Both the position numbers and the translations under genes were made by a program. DNA of 64,000 nucleotides, from contig NATV01000102.1 of NCBI GenBank assembly GCA_003094535.1, positions 6,507 through 70,506 on the forward strand. Direction: 5' to 3'. This DNA is from a gamma proteobacterium symbiont of Ctena orbiculata. GTDB taxonomy: Bacteria; Pseudomonadota; Gammaproteobacteria; Chromatiales; Chromatiaceae. The stretch's first letter is position 1. Every line of letters begins with the position of its first letter. The notes under the pieces are model-generated. The model was given only the letters and a program-made list of their open reading frames with translations. It had not been told where the DNA came from and ran no database searches. Shown here in pieces: positions 43,357-52,936 of this stretch.

Positions 43357-43406
43357 TGGAACGGACTGTTCACAAGAACGAAAGACGATTGAACGATTCG
43401 TTCAAT
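43357..43406 (+). promoter_or_regulatory. Tandem upstream activator sites (weak + perfect palindrome)
   Basis: TGGAACGG-A-CTGTTCAC (43357-43373) and ATTGAACGA-T-TCGTTCAAT (43388-43406); near-identical pair at 52661-52709. Confidence 0.75.
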
Positions 43407-43581
43407 GCCAATGATCCGCGACACAAAGCAATGCATCGCTATCTTGCCAAGAAGACCGGAGAACTCCCGGGCAGGCAGCGTCGGTAACGCGCTGTGATTG
43501 CCGGCTATTCGATAGTTGTCACCACCTTGGAGCCGCCTCTCCGCATGGCTTGTTACCAGCGCCGGTTCTTTGTGATTGGCA

Positions 43582-43598
43582 CTGGTATAATTCTTGCA
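43582..43598 (+). promoter_or_regulatory. Sigma54 (-24/-12) promoter of the cytochrome c2 operon
   Basis: CTGGTATAATTCTTGCA, GG-N10-GC with TTGC. Confidence 0.7.
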
Positions 43599-43696
43599 AA
43601 ATGAACTATTTATCGGGGTCCATGTTCCTCAATAGGGCGGATGAGAAGCTCACCGGGGACACCTGTCTCTATCACTATAAATTTAGGAGTCTTTAC

Positions 43697-44119
43697 ATGA
43701 AGAAGCTTGCTCTGGTTGCCTTGGCTGCTGCAATCGCCTTTCCAATGGCCAGCGTTGACGTTATGGCAATGGATGAAGCCAAAGCGACAAAAAAAATGGT
43801 AAAGAGAGGTAAGAAAGTAGCCATCAAACAGTGTTTCGCTTGTCACGACATAACCGAAGACAAGCAAAACAGAGTCGGTCCCCCGCTTTGGGGTGTCTAT
43901 GGCAGATCAGCCGGCGCGGTTGATGGCTATCAATACTCTGAAGCACATTTGGGCAAAGCGGATTCAATCGTTTGGGATGAAGCCACCCTCGATGCTTACC
44001 TGCAGGACCCGAAGGCCCTGGTACCTGGGAACAAAATGGCGTTTCCCGTTGCCGGCATGCCTATTATGTCCGATAAACAACGGAAGAACGTGATCGAATT
44101 CCTGAAGACGCTAAAGTAA
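43697..44119 (+). CDS. Class I c-type cytochrome (c2/CycA-like)
   Basis: AGGAG RBS, start MKKLA; CFACH, VGPPLWGVYGR, YLQDPK, PGNKMAF axial Met. Confidence 0.93.
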   Translation: MKKLALVALAAAIAFPMASVDVMAMDEAKATKKMVKRGKKVAIKQCFACHDITEDKQNRVGPPLWGVYGRSAGAVDGYQYSEAHLGKADSIVWDEATLDAYLQDPKALVPGNKMAFPVAGMPIMSDKQRKNVIEFLKTLK

Positions 44120-44160
44120 CTGTTCGCTTTTTAACTCCAGCTGTAAGGAGGTCTTGATTC

Positions 44161-44598
44161 ATGAACATTTTGCGCACTCGGATTTTCTTACTCCCACTAC
44201 TTATCCTGTTTATCTCTCCGCCGCTGTATGCGGCCGACACTGGTGTGGTCACAATCAATGCGAAAAACTCCGCCGCGGAGATCCTGGAAAGTTTGAAAAT
44301 GCAGCTTGAGCAAAAACGATTCAAGATCTTTTCGGTGTACGACCATGGGGACAAGGGTTCCGTCAAGCAGGTTATTGTTTTCGGAAAAACGAATCACAAT
44401 GCACGCATCATGTGGCACGATCCCGCTGCCGGTCTGGAACTGCCGCTGAAGATCGCCGTTTTCCAGGACGACGTGGGGACGCAGGTGATCTACCGCAAGC
44501 CCTCCTCTTTACGAAACACCTATAGCCTGCAAGAGTGTAATCTGTTGGATGAGTTGGACCTGTTGATGGCTGAATTGGCGCAGAAAGCAGCCCAGTGA
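44161..44598 (+). CDS. DUF302 domain protein, exported
   Basis: FKIFSVYDH, VIVFG, AGLELPLKIAV. Confidence 0.85.
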   Translation: MNILRTRIFLLPLLILFISPPLYAADTGVVTINAKNSAAEILESLKMQLEQKRFKIFSVYDHGDKGSVKQVIVFGKTNHNARIMWHDPAAGLELPLKIAVFQDDVGTQVIYRKPSSLRNTYSLQECNLLDELDLLMAELAQKAAQ

Positions 44599-45191
44599 CG
44601 CTTTCCAATCCTCGCCTGCTTTCGGCCATCCTGGTTGGGATTATTGCAATTCCGGCGACTGCGCTCTCCACGCCGCAGTCGCCGGAAGCGTGTGGAAGCC
44701 GCTCTTTCGGCAGCGGCATCTTTCGCGCATACACTGATCCAAAGCCGGTATCCCGGCAGGCGTTTACCACCGATGGCGGCAAAAAGATCGACCTGGACAG
44801 TCTTCCGGGGCCGCGCGCGCTGCTTGTCAATTTCTGGACCACATGGTGCACCCCGTGCAGAGAGGAGATGCCCTCCCTGGACCGACTTCAGGGACGTGTC
44901 TCCAGTGACCAGCTGCTGATCCTGCCCTTGGTCCGGGATGGAAAAGGGTTATCGGAAGCGGAGCGCTTCTATCGAACACATGAAATCACCAACCTACCCG
45001 TCGCAGCCGACCGGTTCGGCAAGATCTCCCATGACCACCGTATTGGCGCCCTGCCGCAGACATTGTTTGTTGACCAACAGGGATTGGTAAAAGGGGTTTT
45101 GATCGGCGGTGTGGACTGGGAGAGCAGGCCGGTGTTGGAGTTGCTGAACCGTTGTTTGAATGTAACAGTCGACCAAGAGACATCCGGTTGA
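44595..45191 (+). CDS. TlpA/ResA-like thiol-disulfide oxidoreductase
   Basis: LVNFWTTWCTPCREEMPSL, LPQTLFVD; GTGA overlap with DUF302. Confidence 0.9.
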   Translation: MTLSNPRLLSAILVGIIAIPATALSTPQSPEACGSRSFGSGIFRAYTDPKPVSRQAFTTDGGKKIDLDSLPGPRALLVNFWTTWCTPCREEMPSLDRLQGRVSSDQLLILPLVRDGKGLSEAERFYRTHEITNLPVAADRFGKISHDHRIGALPQTLFVDQQGLVKGVLIGGVDWESRPVLELLNRCLNVTVDQETSG

Positions 45192-45298
45192 CACGCTCTA
45201 TCTATAGAATCTATGAATGAACGACCATCCAGGCTGCCGAATCCTGTCCGCCTGACCGTTGTCGTGACTGCAGCCTGTAAAAAAGATATTGCTGAAGC

Positions 45299-46093
45299 CT
45301 ACTCGTTGGCAGCCGCCATGTCTCCACATTTCAGCAAGGCCAGCATCTCCTTGTTTTCCAGTTTATTGGCAAAATCACAGGCGTTGACCTCCTGCTTGCC
45401 CATTTTAAGGTAGTCCGCCGCCTTCATAGTCTGCTTGGGATCCGCGCCGTTTTTCAGCAGCAACTTAACCATCTTATTGCTACCCGTGTTGATGGCGTAC
45501 ATCAGTGGAGTAAGGTCCTCTTCACTTACCCTGTAATTGACATCAACGCCATTTTTCAAAAGCAGCCTGACCGCTTCGATTTTTTCCTCGCTGACGGCCT
45601 CTTGCAGCAGCGTCCTGCTGAACATGGTTGTTACGTTCAGATCCAGCCCCAGTTGAATCGCCCTTTTTAACTGCTCGTCCCGATCATTGACACCCGGTTC
45701 ATAGAGCACAAGCTGAAGTAACTCTCCGTTCTCCACCGCACCTTTATAGGCCTCACAGCCCGACGCAGAGCCAAAATCACATGCAAGTTTGGTGTATTTA
45801 TAGGCTTCAACAATATCTTTTGATTCAATGCCGAATCTAACCTCCCCTTCTAAATAAGCCGACGCCATGACAAGGCAGAGCTCGCCACTTTTCTCTTCAA
45901 TACAGTACTGTTTTAACGTTTCACCCGCCTCTTCGTACCGCAGCTGAGAAACAAGGAAAGTGACCTCCCTCTGCCAACCGATCGGAGCCCCTGCCGCCAT
46001 GGCCAGAGTGGGCAGGACGAACAGCGCCATGACTGCAAAAAACACTTCTTTGATGGCTTTCCTGTTCAAGCTGTAACCCTGTAGCATTATCAT
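45299..46093 (-). CDS. Exported Sel1-like + ankyrin repeat protein
   Basis: AYKYTKLACDFGSASGC; RTLLQEAV...LLLKNGVDVN; TPLMYA...LLLKNGADP. Confidence 0.85.
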   Translation of the reverse strand: MIMLQGYSLNRKAIKEVFFAVMALFVLPTLAMAAGAPIGWQREVTFLVSQLRYEEAGETLKQYCIEEKSGELCLVMASAYLEGEVRFGIESKDIVEAYKYTKLACDFGSASGCEAYKGAVENGELLQLVLYEPGVNDRDEQLKRAIQLGLDLNVTTMFSRTLLQEAVSEEKIEAVRLLLKNGVDVNYRVSEEDLTPLMYAINTGSNKMVKLLLKNGADPKQTMKAADYLKMGKQEVNACDFANKLENKEMLALLKCGDMAAANE

Positions 46094-46147
46094 TACCTAC
46101 ACACCTGATTTGAGTTCGAGATACCTATTTGAAACACACAACAAACC

Positions 46148-47056
46148 TTAACCGATCGGACCACCCATATCATCGGTACTGTCATGCATCTCCCCGCCCC
46201 AATCTATCCACTCCACAAGGGAACCGTCATAGAGCCGGGCTTCCGGGTTTTGCAGAATTTGATGCAGGACAAACCAGCCCAATGCCGCCCAGACGCCGGT
46301 ATCGCTGAAAGTGGCAAGCGCCCCTCTGGTTTGAATATCATAACGTTCAAATTCCAGTTGGATGATTTCCGCGGACAGAAACCCTCCTGTTTCACCATCC
46401 AGTAACCGTTCAGGCGGAATCCCGACACCGTCATAAATCGTTCCGCCTTCGGCTACCTGCGGGTCTCGCCTGTAGCCTTCAAAATAGGACGTGGGCCGCA
46501 GATCGATCACCGGCCTGTTATTACCCAGTAAATCTTCCACGCGACTGCTGTCGGCCAACAGATCAGGCTGGAGACTGATGCTGCACACCTTTGGGTCCAC
46601 GGATGACGCGCCTTCGACCAGATCGTGAGCGGGCAGCGACTCAATACCGCCGTCCAAAAGTGCGACCCGCTGAACACCGGCCATCATCAGGCTCCACACA
46701 ACACGCGCCGCTTCAGCGACCTGCCTGGGATGCCTGACGGAACCGACCACAATCACGGATTCATCACCCTCCAATCCCAGGCTGCCCAGTAACTCCGCCA
46801 GTTTATTCCCGTCAGGCAGGTAACCGGGCAGGCCGTAGCGATCAACCTGCCAAGCGCGCTCTTTAAAGCCGGCCCAGCGTGCTTGCGGCCAGTGGCCAGC
46901 CATGAACTCGGCGCGGGACCTGACATCCAAAACAACAACTTTTTCGCTGTTCTGGGAGAGCCAGGCGCCATCCACCAGTACCGGCAAGGGCGCTGCAAAA
47001 AGATACAACGGCCAGAGACATCCCAACAGTGCCAGGATAGGAAACTGTACAGCCAC
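46148..47056 (-). CDS. Tandem-domain rhodanese/sulfurtransferase homolog, active-site Cys replaced by Ser
   Basis: VLDVR...GHWP, LLDGG, IDLR, FSDTGVWA, LYDGSLVEW; GTG start at 47056 chosen to avoid a long overlap (ORF track start 47107). Confidence 0.85.
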   Translation of the reverse strand: MAVQFPILALLGCLWPLYLFAAPLPVLVDGAWLSQNSEKVVVLDVRSRAEFMAGHWPQARWAGFKERAWQVDRYGLPGYLPDGNKLAELLGSLGLEGDESVIVVGSVRHPRQVAEAARVVWSLMMAGVQRVALLDGGIESLPAHDLVEGASSVDPKVCSISLQPDLLADSSRVEDLLGNNRPVIDLRPTSYFEGYRRDPQVAEGGTIYDGVGIPPERLLDGETGGFLSAEIIQLEFERYDIQTRGALATFSDTGVWAALGWFVLHQILQNPEARLYDGSLVEWIDWGGEMHDSTDDMGGPIG

Positions 47057-47991
47057 TATGACCGGGTCACGCAGTGATTCAGTTCGGAAGCCAGTTTGCC
47101 AAACCACTGAAAGTAGCCTCCCGTCGTTTTCGGCATCTCCAGGCCGGCGGGATCCAATACGACACTGTTCAAGCCGGCCTGATCCAATACAGATTTAAGC
47201 TGCGGATCTATGGGTTCGGCCGCCACCACGCATTTGACGCCCCGGGTCTTGGCCTTATCGACGATATCCTGGGCGCTTCCGCCGGCTGGAACCGTTCTCA
47301 GTCGATAGCGCTGTTCAAGGTAGTGAAATTCATCCTGCAAGACCACAAACGGCTGGCCGCCGACATGGTGAAACAGTTTGTTGACGCGGATGTCCAGCTC
47401 CCAGAGGGCCTGGATGATCTGATCCGAATTGCCCTGGTAGGCCCAGTGGTTACGTTGGTCCAACCCCTGAAAAACCATCGTTATCGCCTCCAGGGCCGCC
47501 ATGGCGTTCAGCGGGTCCAGCCAATATAGCGTATCGATCGCCCCTTCGGGGCGAATGGTTTGCACCATGCCATATCCCTTACCCAATGACTCCATGTGCG
47601 GATCCTCATCTTCCTTCGCTGCTTTCCAGTCTGCCGGAGTCCGCTTGGCCAGCTGGTGTACACCGGCCGCGTCAATCAAGGAGACTGCCGCCTGGCCGGA
47701 TTCCGTCAGCTGCCTCCCAAGCCCGGGCTCTAAGGTTGCGCCACCCCAGAAGAGGACCGTCAGATCGTCTGGTATCTGCCAGCGCCCCCGCTCATCCTTC
47801 TCCACCAACAGGACTTCCACTGGGCTGCCCCAAGCCAGCGCAGAGGCCAGGGTGAACATAGGGGGCTGCGTAACGCCGACGCGGAACATGGCTTGCGGCT
47901 TCTCACTGGTGGGCAGATCACCGCCAACTACCGTTGCAATAAGTCCCAACCAGAGCGCGATAACGCTTACAACCAATCTAGCCATAACCAC
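47056..47991 (-). CDS. ZnuA-fold substrate-binding-like protein lacking canonical His ligands
   Basis: YWLDPLNA, FVVLQDEFHYLEQRY, VLDP cluster A-I framework; no permease or ATPase adjacent. Confidence 0.72.
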   Translation of the reverse strand: MVMARLVVSVIALWLGLIATVVGGDLPTSEKPQAMFRVGVTQPPMFTLASALAWGSPVEVLLVEKDERGRWQIPDDLTVLFWGGATLEPGLGRQLTESGQAAVSLIDAAGVHQLAKRTPADWKAAKEDEDPHMESLGKGYGMVQTIRPEGAIDTLYWLDPLNAMAALEAITMVFQGLDQRNHWAYQGNSDQIIQALWELDIRVNKLFHHVGGQPFVVLQDEFHYLEQRYRLRTVPAGGSAQDIVDKAKTRGVKCVVAAEPIDPQLKSVLDQAGLNSVVLDPAGLEMPKTTGGYFQWFGKLASELNHCVTRS

Positions 47992-48008
47992 TCCAAACCC
48001 ACTGTTCG

Positions 48009-48590
48009 CTATTCAGAATTTGTCGCCTGATCGTTTTTCGCCATGTGCCCTTTCACTTTGACCAGCAGCGCCTTATACGACCCCAAGTCGGCCAGAGTGA
48101 GGTGGCGAACCCCGCTGTGAGAGTTAAACGTGACCACCATTTTATGCCCTTTTTCCATCTCATTGAGGATTTTCGCGGCACTTTCAGGGGAGATCATCAG
48201 GTTGTTCCCTTTGGGTGCCGTGATCTTGTGGCGGCTGTGCTTATCGATGCCGATAGTGACGGTAGTTCCCGCCTTGAATCCCTGGTAGGTGGCGACCACA
48301 AAACCAACGGAATCGGGTGTCCACGCTGGCCCTACCTGGACAAAATTCTTTGCTTTCCATTCGCCGAACTGTTCGATGTGAAACATGCGGCAGTAGACCT
48401 TGTTCTCCTCCATTTCGTCGCAAGTCGCCTTCCAGGTTCCGGCCCGCTCTTCGAACAGGTGATCCCGCTTCATCGGCATGGGCACCCGCTGTTCACTCAT
48501 CGCGCCTTCATCCGCAGCCTTTGCCAAAACGGGAGCGACGCAAAATCCAATCGCCAAGACCAGAACAGTCGTAACAAGAGGATCTTTCAT
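48009..48590 (-). CDS. Invasion-associated locus B (IalB)-like exported protein
   Basis: GTWKATCD...YCRMF; MEKGHKMVVTF; ADLGSYKA. Confidence 0.65.
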   Translation of the reverse strand: MKDPLVTTVLVLAIGFCVAPVLAKAADEGAMSEQRVPMPMKRDHLFEERAGTWKATCDEMEENKVYCRMFHIEQFGEWKAKNFVQVGPAWTPDSVGFVVATYQGFKAGTTVTIGIDKHSRHKITAPKGNNLMISPESAAKILNEMEKGHKMVVTFNSHSGVRHLTLADLGSYKALLVKVKGHMAKNDQATNSE

Positions 48591-49732
48591 TAATCCGCCT
48601 CCGCATCATTGCGCGCGCCGCGCAGCACCCAGTTACTGACCAGCTGCAACTGCTCCTGACTCAGCTTGGTGTAACGCCGCATTTCCTTCAGGTTGTTGCG
48701 CCAATCGAACATGATCCACTTATCACGTGGATAGGTTGTGTGACACAAATTGCAGTCCAAATCATGGAGATCGGTCACATACTCCCAGAAGCGCTCTTCA
48801 CTGGATCCAATGGCAGAGCGTGGCACCCATCCGCTAAGCTTGATGCGGTTCCAGGTCAACTCATACTCCGGTTCCAGCTTGCTCTCTATTTTCTCCACTT
48901 GATCCATGCCATCGAAATTCATCTTGGCCAACGCGACGGCACGATTGAAGTCGATAAAGATCTGACTGCCCTCTTCCCTGTCCCATCCTTCACTTGTCAC
49001 TTGAACCCAATCGCCATCCTGTTTGACAACCGTCAACGGCGTACCGCCATAGAGCGTTGCCAGCGGATCTTCGCCGCCCGGGGTAGCCGTCATTTCCACT
49101 TCAGGCAGGATCACAACCGCATTGTCAGCGAGTTGGGCATTATGGGCTTGCGTATGATATTCGGCTTCCATCTCCGCATAGAGCTTCTCCATATTGGGCA
49201 ATTTATGGGCAATTCCTTTGTGGCAGTTAATACAGGTCTGCTCCCCGCTCATAAGCTTCTTGTGCATCTTTTGCGCCAATGAAGCCTGCTTGTCTGTAAG
49301 CATTGTTTCGTTGGTATGGCAGTTACGACACTCGCGGGAGTCACTCTTCTCCATGGTCCTCCATACATTGTCGGCAAGCTGCAGCCGGTGTGCTTCAAAC
49401 TTCTCCGGTGTATCGATGGTGCCCAGGGCCCAATGGTACAACTCTTTTGTCGCCATGATTTTACGCACCAATTTCGCACCCCAGGGTTTCGGCACATGAC
49501 AGTCTGAACAGATTGCCGGGACACCGGAGGAATTGTGCGCATGCGCCGACTCTTCATACTCCCCCTTCACCACATTCATTTCGTGGCAGGAAGTACAGAA
49601 TTCATAGCTATTGGTATATTCCATGAAGGTGTTAAAGCCGCCCCAACCAATAACACCGGCGATGATACCGACACCAAGCAACAGGCTTCGTGGGCCTGTT
49701 CCCGACAACCATTTGAGCGCTTTTTTAACCAT
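48590..49732 (-). CDS. TorC/TorY-like pentaheme c-type cytochrome (NapC/NirT domain + C-terminal monoheme domain)
   Basis: TM anchor, CTSCH, CSDCH, CRNCH, CINCH, HKGIAH, then CNLCH; start MVKKAL with AGGA RBS. Confidence 0.9.
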   Translation of the reverse strand: MVKKALKWLSGTGPRSLLLGVGIIAGVIGWGGFNTFMEYTNSYEFCTSCHEMNVVKGEYEESAHAHNSSGVPAICSDCHVPKPWGAKLVRKIMATKELYHWALGTIDTPEKFEAHRLQLADNVWRTMEKSDSRECRNCHTNETMLTDKQASLAQKMHKKLMSGEQTCINCHKGIAHKLPNMEKLYAEMEAEYHTQAHNAQLADNAVVILPEVEMTATPGGEDPLATLYGGTPLTVVKQDGDWVQVTSEGWDREEGSQIFIDFNRAVALAKMNFDGMDQVEKIESKLEPEYELTWNRIKLSGWVPRSAIGSSEERFWEYVTDLHDLDCNLCHTTYPRDKWIMFDWRNNLKEMRRYTKLSQEQLQLVSNWVLRGARNDAEAD

Positions 49733-49816
49733 CACATTCCTATCGATTACAGTTCTATCAGTTTCATCATTGAAGGAGAGAGTCGCCAATCAAGATCTAT
49801 CCAACAATTAACTATA

Positions 49817-49833
49817 AGCAATAAACATACCTT
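49817..49833 (-). promoter_or_regulatory. Possible internal sigma54 promoter for the TorC-like operon
   Basis: AAGGTATGTTTATTGCT, GG-N10-GC, shares GGTAT and TTGC with the other two. Confidence 0.5.
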
Positions 49834-49900
49834 GAAAACAGACAACCGCCTTGACCCATACCGCAATCGAAGTCAGTCTTAAAATTCAATAAAAGGAGTG

Positions 49901-49934
49901 AAAAAATGGAGCCAGCCCAAAGGACTGGCTCCAT
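49901..49934 (-). terminator. Intrinsic terminator after the dodecaheme gene
   Basis: 10-bp stem ATGGAGCCAG/CTGGCTCCAT followed by a T-run on the minus strand. Confidence 0.75.
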
Positions 49935-49974
49935 CCATTCAGGTGATAACCACCTCTTTGCCTGCTACCGCAGC

Positions 49975-52326
49975 TTACTTCTTCTGAGCGGCAATGGCCT
50001 TCAGCGCTTTCTTCATGAACTGCTGGTGTTCGAAGCTATCCATAACGCCAGGCTTGGATACCTTCTTCCAGAATTCAGGATTGAAACGCTCTTCGTGACA
50101 TCCGAGGCAGACACCGGTCTTCTCGATGGCGTCACGCTTCTCATCAGGCAGAGGACCTGTCAGCGGCCAGTGAGAACCTACGGAACTCAACTGTTCGCCA
50201 TCCTCGGTAACGATCGCGGACCAGTCGTAGGTCAGGCCGGGGATGCCGGGGATCTGAACCTGGGTCTTCTGAGGAATGATCTTGCCACTCGCGGAGTCCT
50301 TCAGATCCAGGACGAAGTCCTTGTCGGCACCCAACAGGAAGCGACCGCCCTCAACACCGTAGCCCAATGCCTTGGGATTGTCGTGACAGGACTCACAGCT
50401 CCGGGCGCTACGGCCAGCGGTGTGAGGCTGTACGGCGGCGGTATCGATACCTGGACCTTCAGGGGTCTCCCAGATCTTGTTGTTGACCAGGGTCTTGCCG
50501 TCTTTGTCGATAACCGTGGTGGTTACCTGACAACCAGGCATCATCGGGCTGACACGGCCTTCACCGTTGATACCGAGTACCGGCGTCTCCCAACGCAGAT
50601 AGGAGCGGGTCTCCATGACCTTGCCAGGGCTTTTCATACCATTGGTGTTGGGCGGTGCATCCGGGGTCAGACCGGTCTTGGGATCACGGTTGCTGGCGTT
50701 GACGAGCCAGTCGGTACCCTTATTGTCTTTGGAGTAGTCGACGGTGACGTGACAACCGTAACACTGCGGAACCCAGTCGGCGTGACAAGCGTAGCACTCC
50801 ATGTTGTTCTGATGTTGAGGAATCAGGAACATGGAAACCTTCGCCAGCGTAGACTTGAAGGTGCCTTCGTCACCGATCTGCTTCAGCAGCGGAACCCTGA
50901 AGTCCAGGCCGTTGGCGGAGTGAACGATAACGTCCTTGCCCTTCTTGACCACATTACCCAAGGGGTTGCCCCGGGCAGTCAGTAGGAAACCATCTTCAGG
51001 TTCGTACTGGGTGGCGTCTTTCATGTACTCGGGCCACTCCTTGCCGAGTCCGCGCGCCTTGGTGTCGGCGGTCGGCAGACCGTCTTTCATCTCACCGAAC
51101 TCTTCGCCACGACCCAGGGGCAGATCCCAAGGCAGTTTATTGAAGGTACCGTGACAGTCTTCACATTCGACCTCAACCTGAGCCAGGGTGGTGCCGGGGA
51201 TGTTGCCGTCACCATGCAGATCGATGGTGGTATGGCAGTCCTGACAGAGCATGCCGCCTTTCGGGTTGCCGGCAATCGAGTTCATTTCATGGTGAAGGTC
51301 TTCCTTGATGAACAGGTAACGCTTGGTGTGCATCTTGGGCTGCTTCTTGCCCTTTTCATTGAAAGGAGAACCGTAAGGCGCTTCCATGATGCCCTGATAG
51401 CTGACACCTACACGCTTACCGCGGTTGTGGCAAGAGACACAGGTTTCAACCGGGATACCGGAGTATTCAACCTCGCCAACCTTGACCTTGGTCTTACGGG
51501 TGCCCTGCATGCGGTGAGTCAGTATGTGACCCGCCTCGTCCTTGTTGATGGTGGGGTCGCCGCCTTCGTAGAAGCCGTCATTGGAGTAAGGCACGTGACA
51601 GGCGGAACAACCGGACCCGCGGTAGTCACCACGCTTGTCGCGACCGGTAACACCAACGTGACAGCGCTGACAGTCATGACGGGAGTAGGTAAGACCCGCG
51701 TGGTTGGGATTGTCGGTCAGCTTGGCCAAATCCACCTGGGGCAGCTGTTTCAGCCGCTTGGGCATCTGGTCCGGATGTTTCTTGACGAAGTCCTTCATGT
51801 ACTTCTTGTACGCTTTGGTACCGACCAGAGGCACAGGACCGTCCTCGTCCATGACGTCGTAGTTGCCCCAGACAACCTTCATGTCTTTCTGATAGCCCCA
51901 GGACCACATGTTGCCCTGCAGCTTACCGGCCTCGGTATTCATCAGGGATTTGTTCAGACGGTCGTAGTACCCGGAGTGGCACTGGCCACAGGCCTGGTCG
52001 TTAACCGGCATTGCACCGGGATCCGGCAGGAAGTTCTTGGGACCGCCCTTTTTGGCCAGGGCGGCGGGTGAGCCCATATGGGCTTTCATTTTGTCCTTCT
52101 CTTCGGCTGGGTTGCCACCGTGACAGACCACGCAGCCCGCGGGGTCCCCCAGTTCGGCGCCCATCTTTTCAATGTCCTCCTGCATGACACCGTCACTAAA
52201 GCGTTCAACGCCTTCGTGACAAGCCAGACAGGCTTTGCCTTCGGCTTCAGCGATAGGGACGAAAGTAGTGCCTCCGCTACCCCATCCGACTAACGCCACA
52301 ATTGCAAGTAATGCTAGGCGTTTCAT
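49975..52326 (-). CDS. Periplasmic dodecaheme c-type cytochrome
   Basis: Signal peptide; 12 CxxCH (CLACH, CVVCH, CGQCH, CQRCH, CSACH, CVSCH, CQDCH, CEDCH, CYACH, CYGCH, CESCH, CLGCH); one extra Cys in PGCQ. Confidence 0.93.
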   Translation of the reverse strand: MKRLALLAIVALVGWGSGGTTFVPIAEAEGKACLACHEGVERFSDGVMQEDIEKMGAELGDPAGCVVCHGGNPAEEKDKMKAHMGSPAALAKKGGPKNFLPDPGAMPVNDQACGQCHSGYYDRLNKSLMNTEAGKLQGNMWSWGYQKDMKVVWGNYDVMDEDGPVPLVGTKAYKKYMKDFVKKHPDQMPKRLKQLPQVDLAKLTDNPNHAGLTYSRHDCQRCHVGVTGRDKRGDYRGSGCSACHVPYSNDGFYEGGDPTINKDEAGHILTHRMQGTRKTKVKVGEVEYSGIPVETCVSCHNRGKRVGVSYQGIMEAPYGSPFNEKGKKQPKMHTKRYLFIKEDLHHEMNSIAGNPKGGMLCQDCHTTIDLHGDGNIPGTTLAQVEVECEDCHGTFNKLPWDLPLGRGEEFGEMKDGLPTADTKARGLGKEWPEYMKDATQYEPEDGFLLTARGNPLGNVVKKGKDVIVHSANGLDFRVPLLKQIGDEGTFKSTLAKVSMFLIPQHQNNMECYACHADWVPQCYGCHVTVDYSKDNKGTDWLVNASNRDPKTGLTPDAPPNTNGMKSPGKVMETRSYLRWETPVLGINGEGRVSPMMPGCQVTTTVIDKDGKTLVNNKIWETPEGPGIDTAAVQPHTAGRSARSCESCHDNPKALGYGVEGGRFLLGADKDFVLDLKDSASGKIIPQKTQVQIPGIPGLTYDWSAIVTEDGEQLSSVGSHWPLTGPLPDEKRDAIEKTGVCLGCHEERFNPEFWKKVSKPGVMDSFEHQQFMKKALKAIAAQKK

Positions 52327-52459
52327 TATTTGTTAGCTCCCAATTGATAAGAAAAGATGCTTCCGGCCAACGGAAGCGGCGAAAAAGGGCTTTCACACCC
52401 ACGCAATCTCTTGTATGTGATCACTCCCCCAGAAAACACACGCAATGCATGGAAATAGG

Positions 52460-52476
52460 GGCAAAATCCATACCAC
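52460..52476 (-). promoter_or_regulatory. Sigma54 (-24/-12) promoter of the dodecaheme gene
   Basis: GTGGTATGGATTTTGCC, GG-N10-GC. Confidence 0.68.
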
Positions 52477-52660
52477 TACCAATTTTTGGGAAGCGTAGAA
52501 CGATAAAAGCCAGGCCGGAGAGCGTCCGGAAAGATAGGTTAAATACCGAATATTCCTGAATTACAGCACGTTACACGATCTACCTACTTTGGTGTAATTT
52601 GATCTACCTCGTGGAGTGTGAATCAGCGCTGAACCTGTCGCGGAATAAAACCCCAGATTC

Positions 52661-52709
52661 TTTGAACGAATCGTTCAATCAGCGCCAGTTGGGTGAATAA
52701 TCCGTTCAA
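52661..52709 (-). promoter_or_regulatory. Tandem upstream activator sites (perfect + weak palindrome)
   Basis: TTGAACGA-A-TCGTTCAA (52662-52678) and, on the minus strand, TTGAACGG-A-TTATTCAC (52693-52709); extra half-site at 52742-52751. Confidence 0.75.
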
Positions 52710-52936
52710 GCCAATCAAGCAATAGAAGAGGCACCCTGGATTCCGTTCAAGTGCCATTTGATAATCATCGATACCGCTATCAATGTCCGTATCGCTCTCA
52801 ACCAGTACTGCATTGGCAGCTTAAACCTGAACATGCCTCCATAGGGTAAAAATGCTATGCCACGTGCGGTTAAGATATAATTTTTGTACGCTGTGGAAAG
52901 AGTCAATCCCTTAGATTACAAACACGGGAGGAGCTG

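Follow-up and report, generated by a model that had tools for sequence, protein, structure and literature searches.

The locus discussed here raises the question of what controls two convergent operons whose upstream regions carry the same palindrome. It lies in a 64,000-nucleotide (nt) stretch of contig NATV01000102.1 from an uncultured gammaproteobacterial symbiont of Ctena orbiculata, which the names of homologous proteins assign to Candidatus Thiodiazotropha, a sulfur-oxidising symbiont of lucinid clams; this whole stretch is referred to below as the window, positions without a contig name refer to it, and the genome is designated G000. Operon A, on the forward strand, encodes three exported proteins, while operon B, on the reverse strand, begins with the gene for a 12-heme c-type cytochrome. 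A sequence-only reading had proposed that the two form an undescribed regulon, activated through a shared tandem enhancer by an NtrC-type regulator encoded outside the window. The present analysis indicates that operons A and B very probably constitute a single sigma-54 circuit of the NtrC type, with a regulator encoded on contig C43 of the same genome as the predicted activator. This assignment rests on a third copy of the enhancer beside a kinase-regulator gene pair on C43, on the recurrent adjacency of regulator, palindrome and cytochrome genes, and on the persistence of the sites as conserved islands.

The shared element is an exact 17-base-pair (bp) palindrome, TTGAACGAWTCGTTCAA, located at 43389-43405 (+) upstream of operon A and at 52662-52678 (-) upstream of operon B. 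Both copies read TTGAACGATTCGTTCAA along the direction of transcription. A search of the window allowing up to three mismatches returned three matches, two of them exact, versus 0.36 expected from shuffled sequences. Each palindrome is accompanied by a weaker distal site, TGGAACGGACTGTTCAC at 43357-43373 (+) for operon A and TTGAACGGATTATTCAC at 52693-52709 (-) for operon B, with centre-to-centre distances of 32 and 31 bp to the palindromes downstream of them. The strong site of operon A is nearly invariant in the orthologs, and that of operon B is either invariant or differs by one mismatch. The weaker sister sites are also retained, as TGGAAC-N5-GTTCAC upstream of the orthologous cytochrome c genes in the case of operon A and as TGGAACGGTTTATTCAC in 12 orthologous regions in the case of operon B.

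Downstream of each pair of dyads lies a sigma-54-type -24/-12 element with GG and GC 10 nt apart in a TGGCAC-N5-TTGCW-like context, and rpoN is present in the genome. The GG of the operon A element (TGGTATAATTCTTGCA, 43583-43598, +) is 187 bp from the palindrome centre; in the orthologs both GG and GC are invariant and stand 183-187 bp from the palindrome. For operon B (TGGTATGGATTTTGCC, 52460-52475, -) the distance is 196 bp; its orthologs, again with invariant GG and GC, fall into two classes, 186-189 and 196-197 bp, that differ by about one helical turn. The palindromes, their identical orientation, the sister sites 31-32 bp further upstream and the 187-196 bp to GG-N10-GC described in the sequence-only reading were all recovered. 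No sigma-70-like promoter was found between either enhancer and the start codon. As paired dyads that lie at least 100 bp upstream of the promoter and are conserved together with their spacing, the sites have the properties of an enhancer (upstream activating sequence).

Two additional sequences were noted in the operon B region. An extra half-site, TTGAACGG, at 52743-52750 (-), precedes the sister site by about 41 bp; the orthologs do not retain it. A conserved direct-repeat block (GTAGGT ... GTAGGTAGAT) at 52560-52610 (-), between enhancer and promoter, is absent from operon A and might be a site for an architectural or second factor.

The palindrome is rare in the genome. The genome-wide scan suggested by the sequence-only reading found three sites in 4.29 megabases (Mb) at two or fewer mismatches, two in the window and one at C43:1363-1379, and all three share one layout, with the sister site 31-34 bp away and the GG at 187, 196 and 187 bp. 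An estimate from base composition puts the expectation for an exact match at about 2e-4. A further 29 sites appear at three mismatches, none of which pairs with a convincing -24/-12 element, and a scan that combined up to four mismatches with a downstream -24/-12 element gave nothing credible in the genome beyond the three loci. Sites on C142 and C147 were the most palindrome-like of the candidates inspected as extra regulon members, but they lie inside coding sequence and were rejected.

The third copy directly adjoins a candidate activator gene. In order on the reverse strand, C43 carries the genes for an 852-amino-acid (aa) histidine kinase and a 466-aa regulator (G000:C43:1488-2888, -), followed after the stop codon by the sister site TGAAACGATCCGTTCAA, then, at a distance of 34 bp, by the palindrome, and 187 bp beyond that by a near-consensus -24/-12 element, CGGCACAAAAATTGCT (CGGCAC-N5-TTGC). 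The regulator possesses a receiver domain (Pfam Response_reg, 6.9e-24, residues 12-121) with LLVDDD and VLDIRMPG motifs, an AAA+ domain (Pfam Sigma54_activat, 2.5e-68) with a GAFTGA loop and an AAA_lid, and a Fis-type helix-turn-helix (HTH_8, 1.8e-6). The kinase, encoded immediately upstream, combines a periplasmic double-PDC sensor, for which the Vibrio structures 2p7j and 3lid show related domains, with two PAS domains, HisKA and an ATPase domain. The genome encodes 21 enhancer-binding proteins, none of them on the window's contig, and the paralogs of the regulator among them reach at most 41% identity over the full length and 47-48% over the AAA+ domain alone. Such a site is missing beside all the other genes for enhancer-binding proteins in this genome, the near-matches being in coding sequence. 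The activator that had been placed outside the window thus has a candidate in the C43 pair, which stands beside the sole other copy of the enhancer. The kinase gene is itself directly preceded by a gene for a GAF-domain PtsP, enzyme I of the nitrogen phosphotransferase system (G000:C43:5749-8010, -).

Within the genus, the palindrome is found together with the system. Among the 45 genomes compared, it occurred in two to three copies, only in genomes holding the system and in the same places each time, and a reversed-pattern control gave one match in total. One-mismatch palindromes in genomes without the system were discounted; they lie mostly inside open reading frames (ORFs) and occur at the reversed-pattern background. 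In the first genus-level search for the cytochrome, which covered 36 genomes, a regulator at least 77% identical was present in all 11 genomes with a complete or near-complete 12-heme gene. In genome G021 a regulator gene (86% identical) is followed directly by the palindrome and then by a cytochrome gene of 63% identity.

Decay is visible in genes and sites alike. In G016 (loci L079 and L037) a deletion has fused the N-terminus of the kinase to the C-terminus of the regulator, the cytochrome gene has been cut to 161 codons, and the palindrome carries a symmetric double change, TTGAATGATTCATTCAA. In G012 a stop codon falls within the regulator match and both palindromes have one mismatch. These patterns of decay agree with the components having formed a functional unit. 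Separately, G001 and G005 (L068/L072) encode a 68%-identical regulator and no 12-heme cytochrome, and a one-mismatch palindrome pair lies upstream of a HEAT-repeat protein gene about 12 kilobases (kb) from the regulator; in these genomes the same motif may have a different target set.

The arrangement also extends beyond the genus. The order of regulator gene, tandem dyads, GG-N10-GC and 12-heme gene is found at L155/L177, L176, L178, L179, L181, L147 and L083, and members of the same family, from at least eight genera, repeat the order of kinase, regulator, palindrome and 12-heme gene. At these regulator-linked loci and in G021, the GG-N10-GC lies 181-217 bp downstream of the palindrome. The cytochromes encoded at the loci outside the genus are 55-59% identical to that of the window, except at L083 (92%). 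In an order-level sample of 301 genomes, an ortholog of the regulator was found in 66, the cytochrome in 49 and both in 26; in at least 13 of these 26, representing about eight genera, the two genes are on one contig within 10 kb. Because the genomes are related, these counts are not independent. In alignments of the orthologous upstream regions, which the sequence-only reading had named as a check, conservation is concentrated in the sister site, the palindrome and the -24/-12 element, which stand out from surroundings that have diverged, and the distance from palindrome centre to GG in orthologs is 183-189 bp or, one helical turn more, 196-197 bp. Additionally, the helix-turn-helix segment WH(R/K)G-ACEIL-ISRPRLRRM, with the recognition helix ISRPRLRRM in it, does not vary among orthologs of the regulator whose overall identities range from 58 to 100%.

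Based on the current evidence, the circuit would begin with a periplasmic signal that activates the kinase, which would in turn phosphorylate the regulator. The phosphorylated regulator would oligomerise on the two dyads, about three helical turns apart, and from there loop the DNA to the sigma-54 holoenzyme and open the promoters. The shared enhancer would consist of the perfect 17-bp dyad and the weaker dyad, with about 185-197 bp between its centre and the -24 GG downstream. The predicted output is a periplasmic electron-transfer module comprising the 12-heme cytochrome, a monoheme cytochrome c, a DUF302 protein and a TlpA-like protein, and it may or may not include a TorC-like quinol dehydrogenase and accessory proteins. 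Binding by the regulator, dependence on sigma-54, co-expression of the operons and the signal are predicted here from the architecture, the rarity, the conservation and the genomic linkage to the regulator gene that the genomes themselves display.

One of the closest known systems is NtrB/NtrC. Both systems pair a kinase with a regulator made up of a receiver, an AAA+ domain with GAFTGA and a Fis-type helix-turn-helix, in a genome with rpoN. As at the glnAp2 promoter of enteric bacteria, where the spacing of the NtrC sites is 32 bp, two 17-bp dyads about three turns apart precede a GG-N10-GC by more than 100 bp. Despite this similarity, the C43 regulator is distinct from NtrC. It scores 409 bits against the NCBIfam NtrC equivalog cut-off of 558.6, and the dyad is TTGAACGA-W-TCGTTCAA instead of TGCACC-N5-GGTGCA. 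Unlike NtrB, which is cytoplasmic and controlled by PII, the kinase is a membrane sensor whose double-PDC domain is periplasmic, and the predicted targets are genes for periplasmic cytochromes instead of those for nitrogen assimilation. A parallel in function is offered by AioS/AioR (arsenite oxidase), ZraS/ZraR and AtoS/AtoC, in which a periplasm-sensing kinase and an NtrC-family activator control a periplasmic redox or stress module through sigma-54. The regulator remains below the NCBIfam cut-offs for AtoC (407 vs 714) and ZraR (380 vs 760), as does the kinase below the curated cut-offs for both AtoS and ZraS. The DNA motif and the targets also differ from those of the Aio, Zra and Ato systems, and no periplasmic binding-protein partner was identified here.

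Several observations weigh against a single circuit under the C43 regulator. The -24 elements of the two operons read GGTAT versus the GGCAC consensus, and no match to the integration host factor (IHF) consensus at one or fewer mismatches was found between enhancer and promoter. One subclade, with regulators of 77-79% identity, lacks the palindrome behind the regulator gene. The 301-genome sample contains 40 genomes with the regulator and without the cytochrome, and 23 with the cytochrome and without the regulator, so the link between the two is strong, not exclusive. At the alphaproteobacterial cytochrome loci the neighbour is a Crp/Fnr-family gene instead of the regulator gene, together with CcmF. 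Lastly, a conserved terminator precedes the TorC-like gene of operon B and the four genes after it, and most orthologs do not retain the -24/-12 element of this group.

Some of these observations would be expected if the palindromes were real sigma-54 enhancers bound by another factor, which could be unrelated and dimeric or belong to the remaining 20 enhancer-binding proteins, and the adjacency on C43 were simply inherited gene order. The presence of 21 such proteins in the genome, the lack of a site adjoining the regulator gene in the 77-79% subclade and the many genomes with the cytochrome but without this regulator are all compatible with that explanation. It is nevertheless unlikely, given that regulator, palindrome and cytochrome are adjacent in about eight genera, that the recognition helix is invariant, that regulator, cytochrome and site decay jointly in G016, and that the C43 regulator gene is the only enhancer-binding protein gene in the genome beside such a site. 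The Crp/Fnr-family neighbour in the Alphaproteobacteria and the conserved GTAGGT direct-repeat block of operon B could instead be taken to mean that a repressor, or a second, modulating regulator such as a redox or anaerobiosis factor, uses the dyad as its operator, with activation coming from elsewhere. A position about 190 bp upstream of the -24/-12 element, the pairing of the dyads about three turns apart and the shift of their spacing by whole helical turns are the geometry of an enhancer and not of an operator, and this explanation is decidedly improbable.

The shared sequences might also be a dispersed repeat, or a by-product without function that arose when one regulatory region was duplicated or recombined. 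Upstream of operons A and B there is indeed some extra similarity outside the motifs, and the C43 copy is demonstrably a relic. A dispersed repeat unrelated to promoters was the outcome that the sequence-only reading held would overturn it; instead there are three copies only, all upstream of -24/-12 elements. Moreover, the motifs are invariant while their flanks have diverged between genera whose cytochromes are only 55-63% identical. This conservation pattern has already largely refuted a by-product origin, which now has hardly any probability left. One sigma-54 circuit activated by the C43 regulator therefore stands as the preferred explanation for operons A and B.

The structure of C43 downstream of its enhancer bears on the history of this circuit. 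The segment C43:1110-865 shares 77% DNA identity with the last ~180 nt of the G021 cytochrome gene and its terminator, and the HDOD protein gene that comes next after the C43 unit is syntenic in G000 and G021. On these sequence grounds, the C43 unit is a deletion relic of an ancestral regulator-linked operon with cytochrome and TorC-like genes. About 3.4 kb has been lost at C43 in G000 and its closest relatives, leaving at C43:865-1430 (-; locus L039) an intact enhancer and promoter before a remnant of about 300 nt. A 33-aa Cys-rich ORF with a CxxCH motif after the C43 promoter was considered as a gene and rejected; because it is not conserved in G061, G011 and G013 and given the identity to G021, it is a frame remnant of the 3' end of the deleted cytochrome gene. 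An Rfam search of the relic transcript gave sub-threshold, terminator-like matches only. The remnant could function as a regulatory RNA or a decoy site.

The three genes of operon A encode a monoheme c-type cytochrome of 140 aa with a signal peptide (43697-44119, +; Pfam Cytochrom_C, 2.7e-11; one CxxCH), an exported DUF302 protein (44161-44598, +; Pfam DUF302, 1.5e-8) and a TlpA/ResA-like periplasmic thiol-disulfide oxidoreductase (44595-45191, +). The last of these has a WCTPC motif and matches Pfam AhpC-TSA/Redoxin, and it scores below the NCBIfam TlpA cut-off (84 bits vs 230). In two other genera, exact intergenic palindromes were observed by a SCO1/SenC gene beside an IS200 transposase (L180, G300:C12:3469) and by a gene for a 299-aa protein without a family match, followed by a DsbH-like gene (L182, G303:C704:18324). 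The exported thioredoxin-fold neighbours at these two loci echo the TlpA-like member of operon A.

Operon B is longer and is interrupted by a strong intrinsic terminator after the 12-heme gene (49901-49932, -), whose hairpin and T-run are kept in 12 of 12 aligned orthologous intergenic regions. Beyond it lies the gene for a TorC-like pentaheme NapC/NirT quinol dehydrogenase (48590-49732, -, the listed ORF extending to 49789; Pfam Cytochrom_NNT, 7e-68; five CxxCH). Its NapC/NirT domain is clear, the protein falls short of NCBIfam TorC (290 bits vs a cut-off of 478), and no gene for a molybdoenzyme partner of the torA/torD type was found in the operon. The next gene encodes an exported 193-aa protein (48009-48590, -) that lacks a family match in Pfam and NCBIfam and is kept in the orthologous loci. 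It is followed by genes for a ZnuA-fold periplasmic protein (47056-47991, -; Pfam ZnuA, 6.7e-22), which has no transporter partner in the operon, an exported rhodanese-like protein (46148-47107, -; Pfam Rhodanese, 2.7e-10; weak NCBIfam ExtH) and, last, an exported ankyrin-repeat protein (45299-46093, -; Pfam Ank_2, 1.6e-14).

A third GG-N10-GC promoter after the terminator at about 49.9 kb, as described in the sequence-only reading, is present in this genome (AGGTATGTTTATTGCT, 49817-49832, -, 3' of the terminator at 49932-49901). In most orthologs, however, its GG is replaced, and GG-N10-GC is kept only in L083 among the 12 aligned intergenic regions, making the element doubtful as a general feature. 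No dyad was found near it (49832-49817). The conserved terminator and the non-conserved -24/-12 element make the membership of the TorC-like gene and the four genes downstream uncertain, although they likely belong to the regulon. Their transcription may depend on partial read-through, on the weak third element or on another promoter.

The 12-heme cytochrome itself (49975-52326, -) is a periplasmic protein of 783 aa with 12 CxxCH motifs and one extra Cys. A protein search returned more than 2400 homologs at about 60-80% identity, and a scan of species-representative genomes confirmed more than 500 relatives. From Alpha- and Gammaproteobacteria to Magnetococcus, family members share 60-80% identity, and one Cys outside the heme motifs (PGCQ, residue 599) is invariant. 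Together with the CcmF-type heme lyase gene near the alphaproteobacterial loci, this extra Cys suggests an enzyme with an unusual heme site. A PDB sequence search gave no match, and an AlphaFold2 model from a 14-sequence alignment was unusable (mean predicted local distance difference test score, pLDDT, of 31). The 5' leader of the gene is about 135 nt long and contains a GC-rich hairpin directly before the ribosome-binding site. This hairpin with its U-run (52359-52377, -) gives a terminator-like match within a block kept in close orthologs, and it could be an attenuator or a stabilising structure.

The best NCBIfam match of the 12-heme cytochrome is ExtM. In Geobacter, ExtM and the rhodanese ExtH are encoded in the ext cluster, a selenite/tellurite reduction operon (PMC5877670). 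The likeness to this cluster is limited: the cytochrome scores 227 bits against a cut-off of 800 for ExtM and the rhodanese-like protein 33 against 200 for ExtH, and no porin or other ext genes are neighbours here. The window cytochrome instead represents a separate, highly conserved family of proteins of ~780 aa found in marine Alpha- and Gammaproteobacteria. It is conceivable, though on balance doubtful, that the kinase-regulator pair is a dedicated sensor for the substrate of the 12-heme enzyme, for example a sulfur or chalcogen oxyanion.

The mechanism proposed here would be the classical one of the textbooks and adds nothing new to gene regulation as such, whereas the regulator, the motif and the target set appear to be new. 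The motif string was not found in the papers searched, nor was any link of Thiodiazotropha to multiheme cytochromes, and the regulator matches no named equivalog, in keeping with the original suggestion of an undescribed regulon. The 12-heme family is widespread and highly conserved, without a solved structure or an assigned function, and the circuit would link it to a precisely defined DNA motif, to one particular sigma-54 activator and to that activator's periplasmic sensor kinase. The main value of this connection is practical, in that an enhancer-promoter reporter offers a route to the function of the cytochrome. If the pair is in fact a dedicated sensor, the enhancer would become a handle on the substrate and on a new pathway, for respiration or detoxification, of marine bacteria and sulfur-oxidising symbionts. 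For the symbionts of lucinid clams, the analysis defines an accessory, patchily distributed respiratory module and its predicted control circuit.

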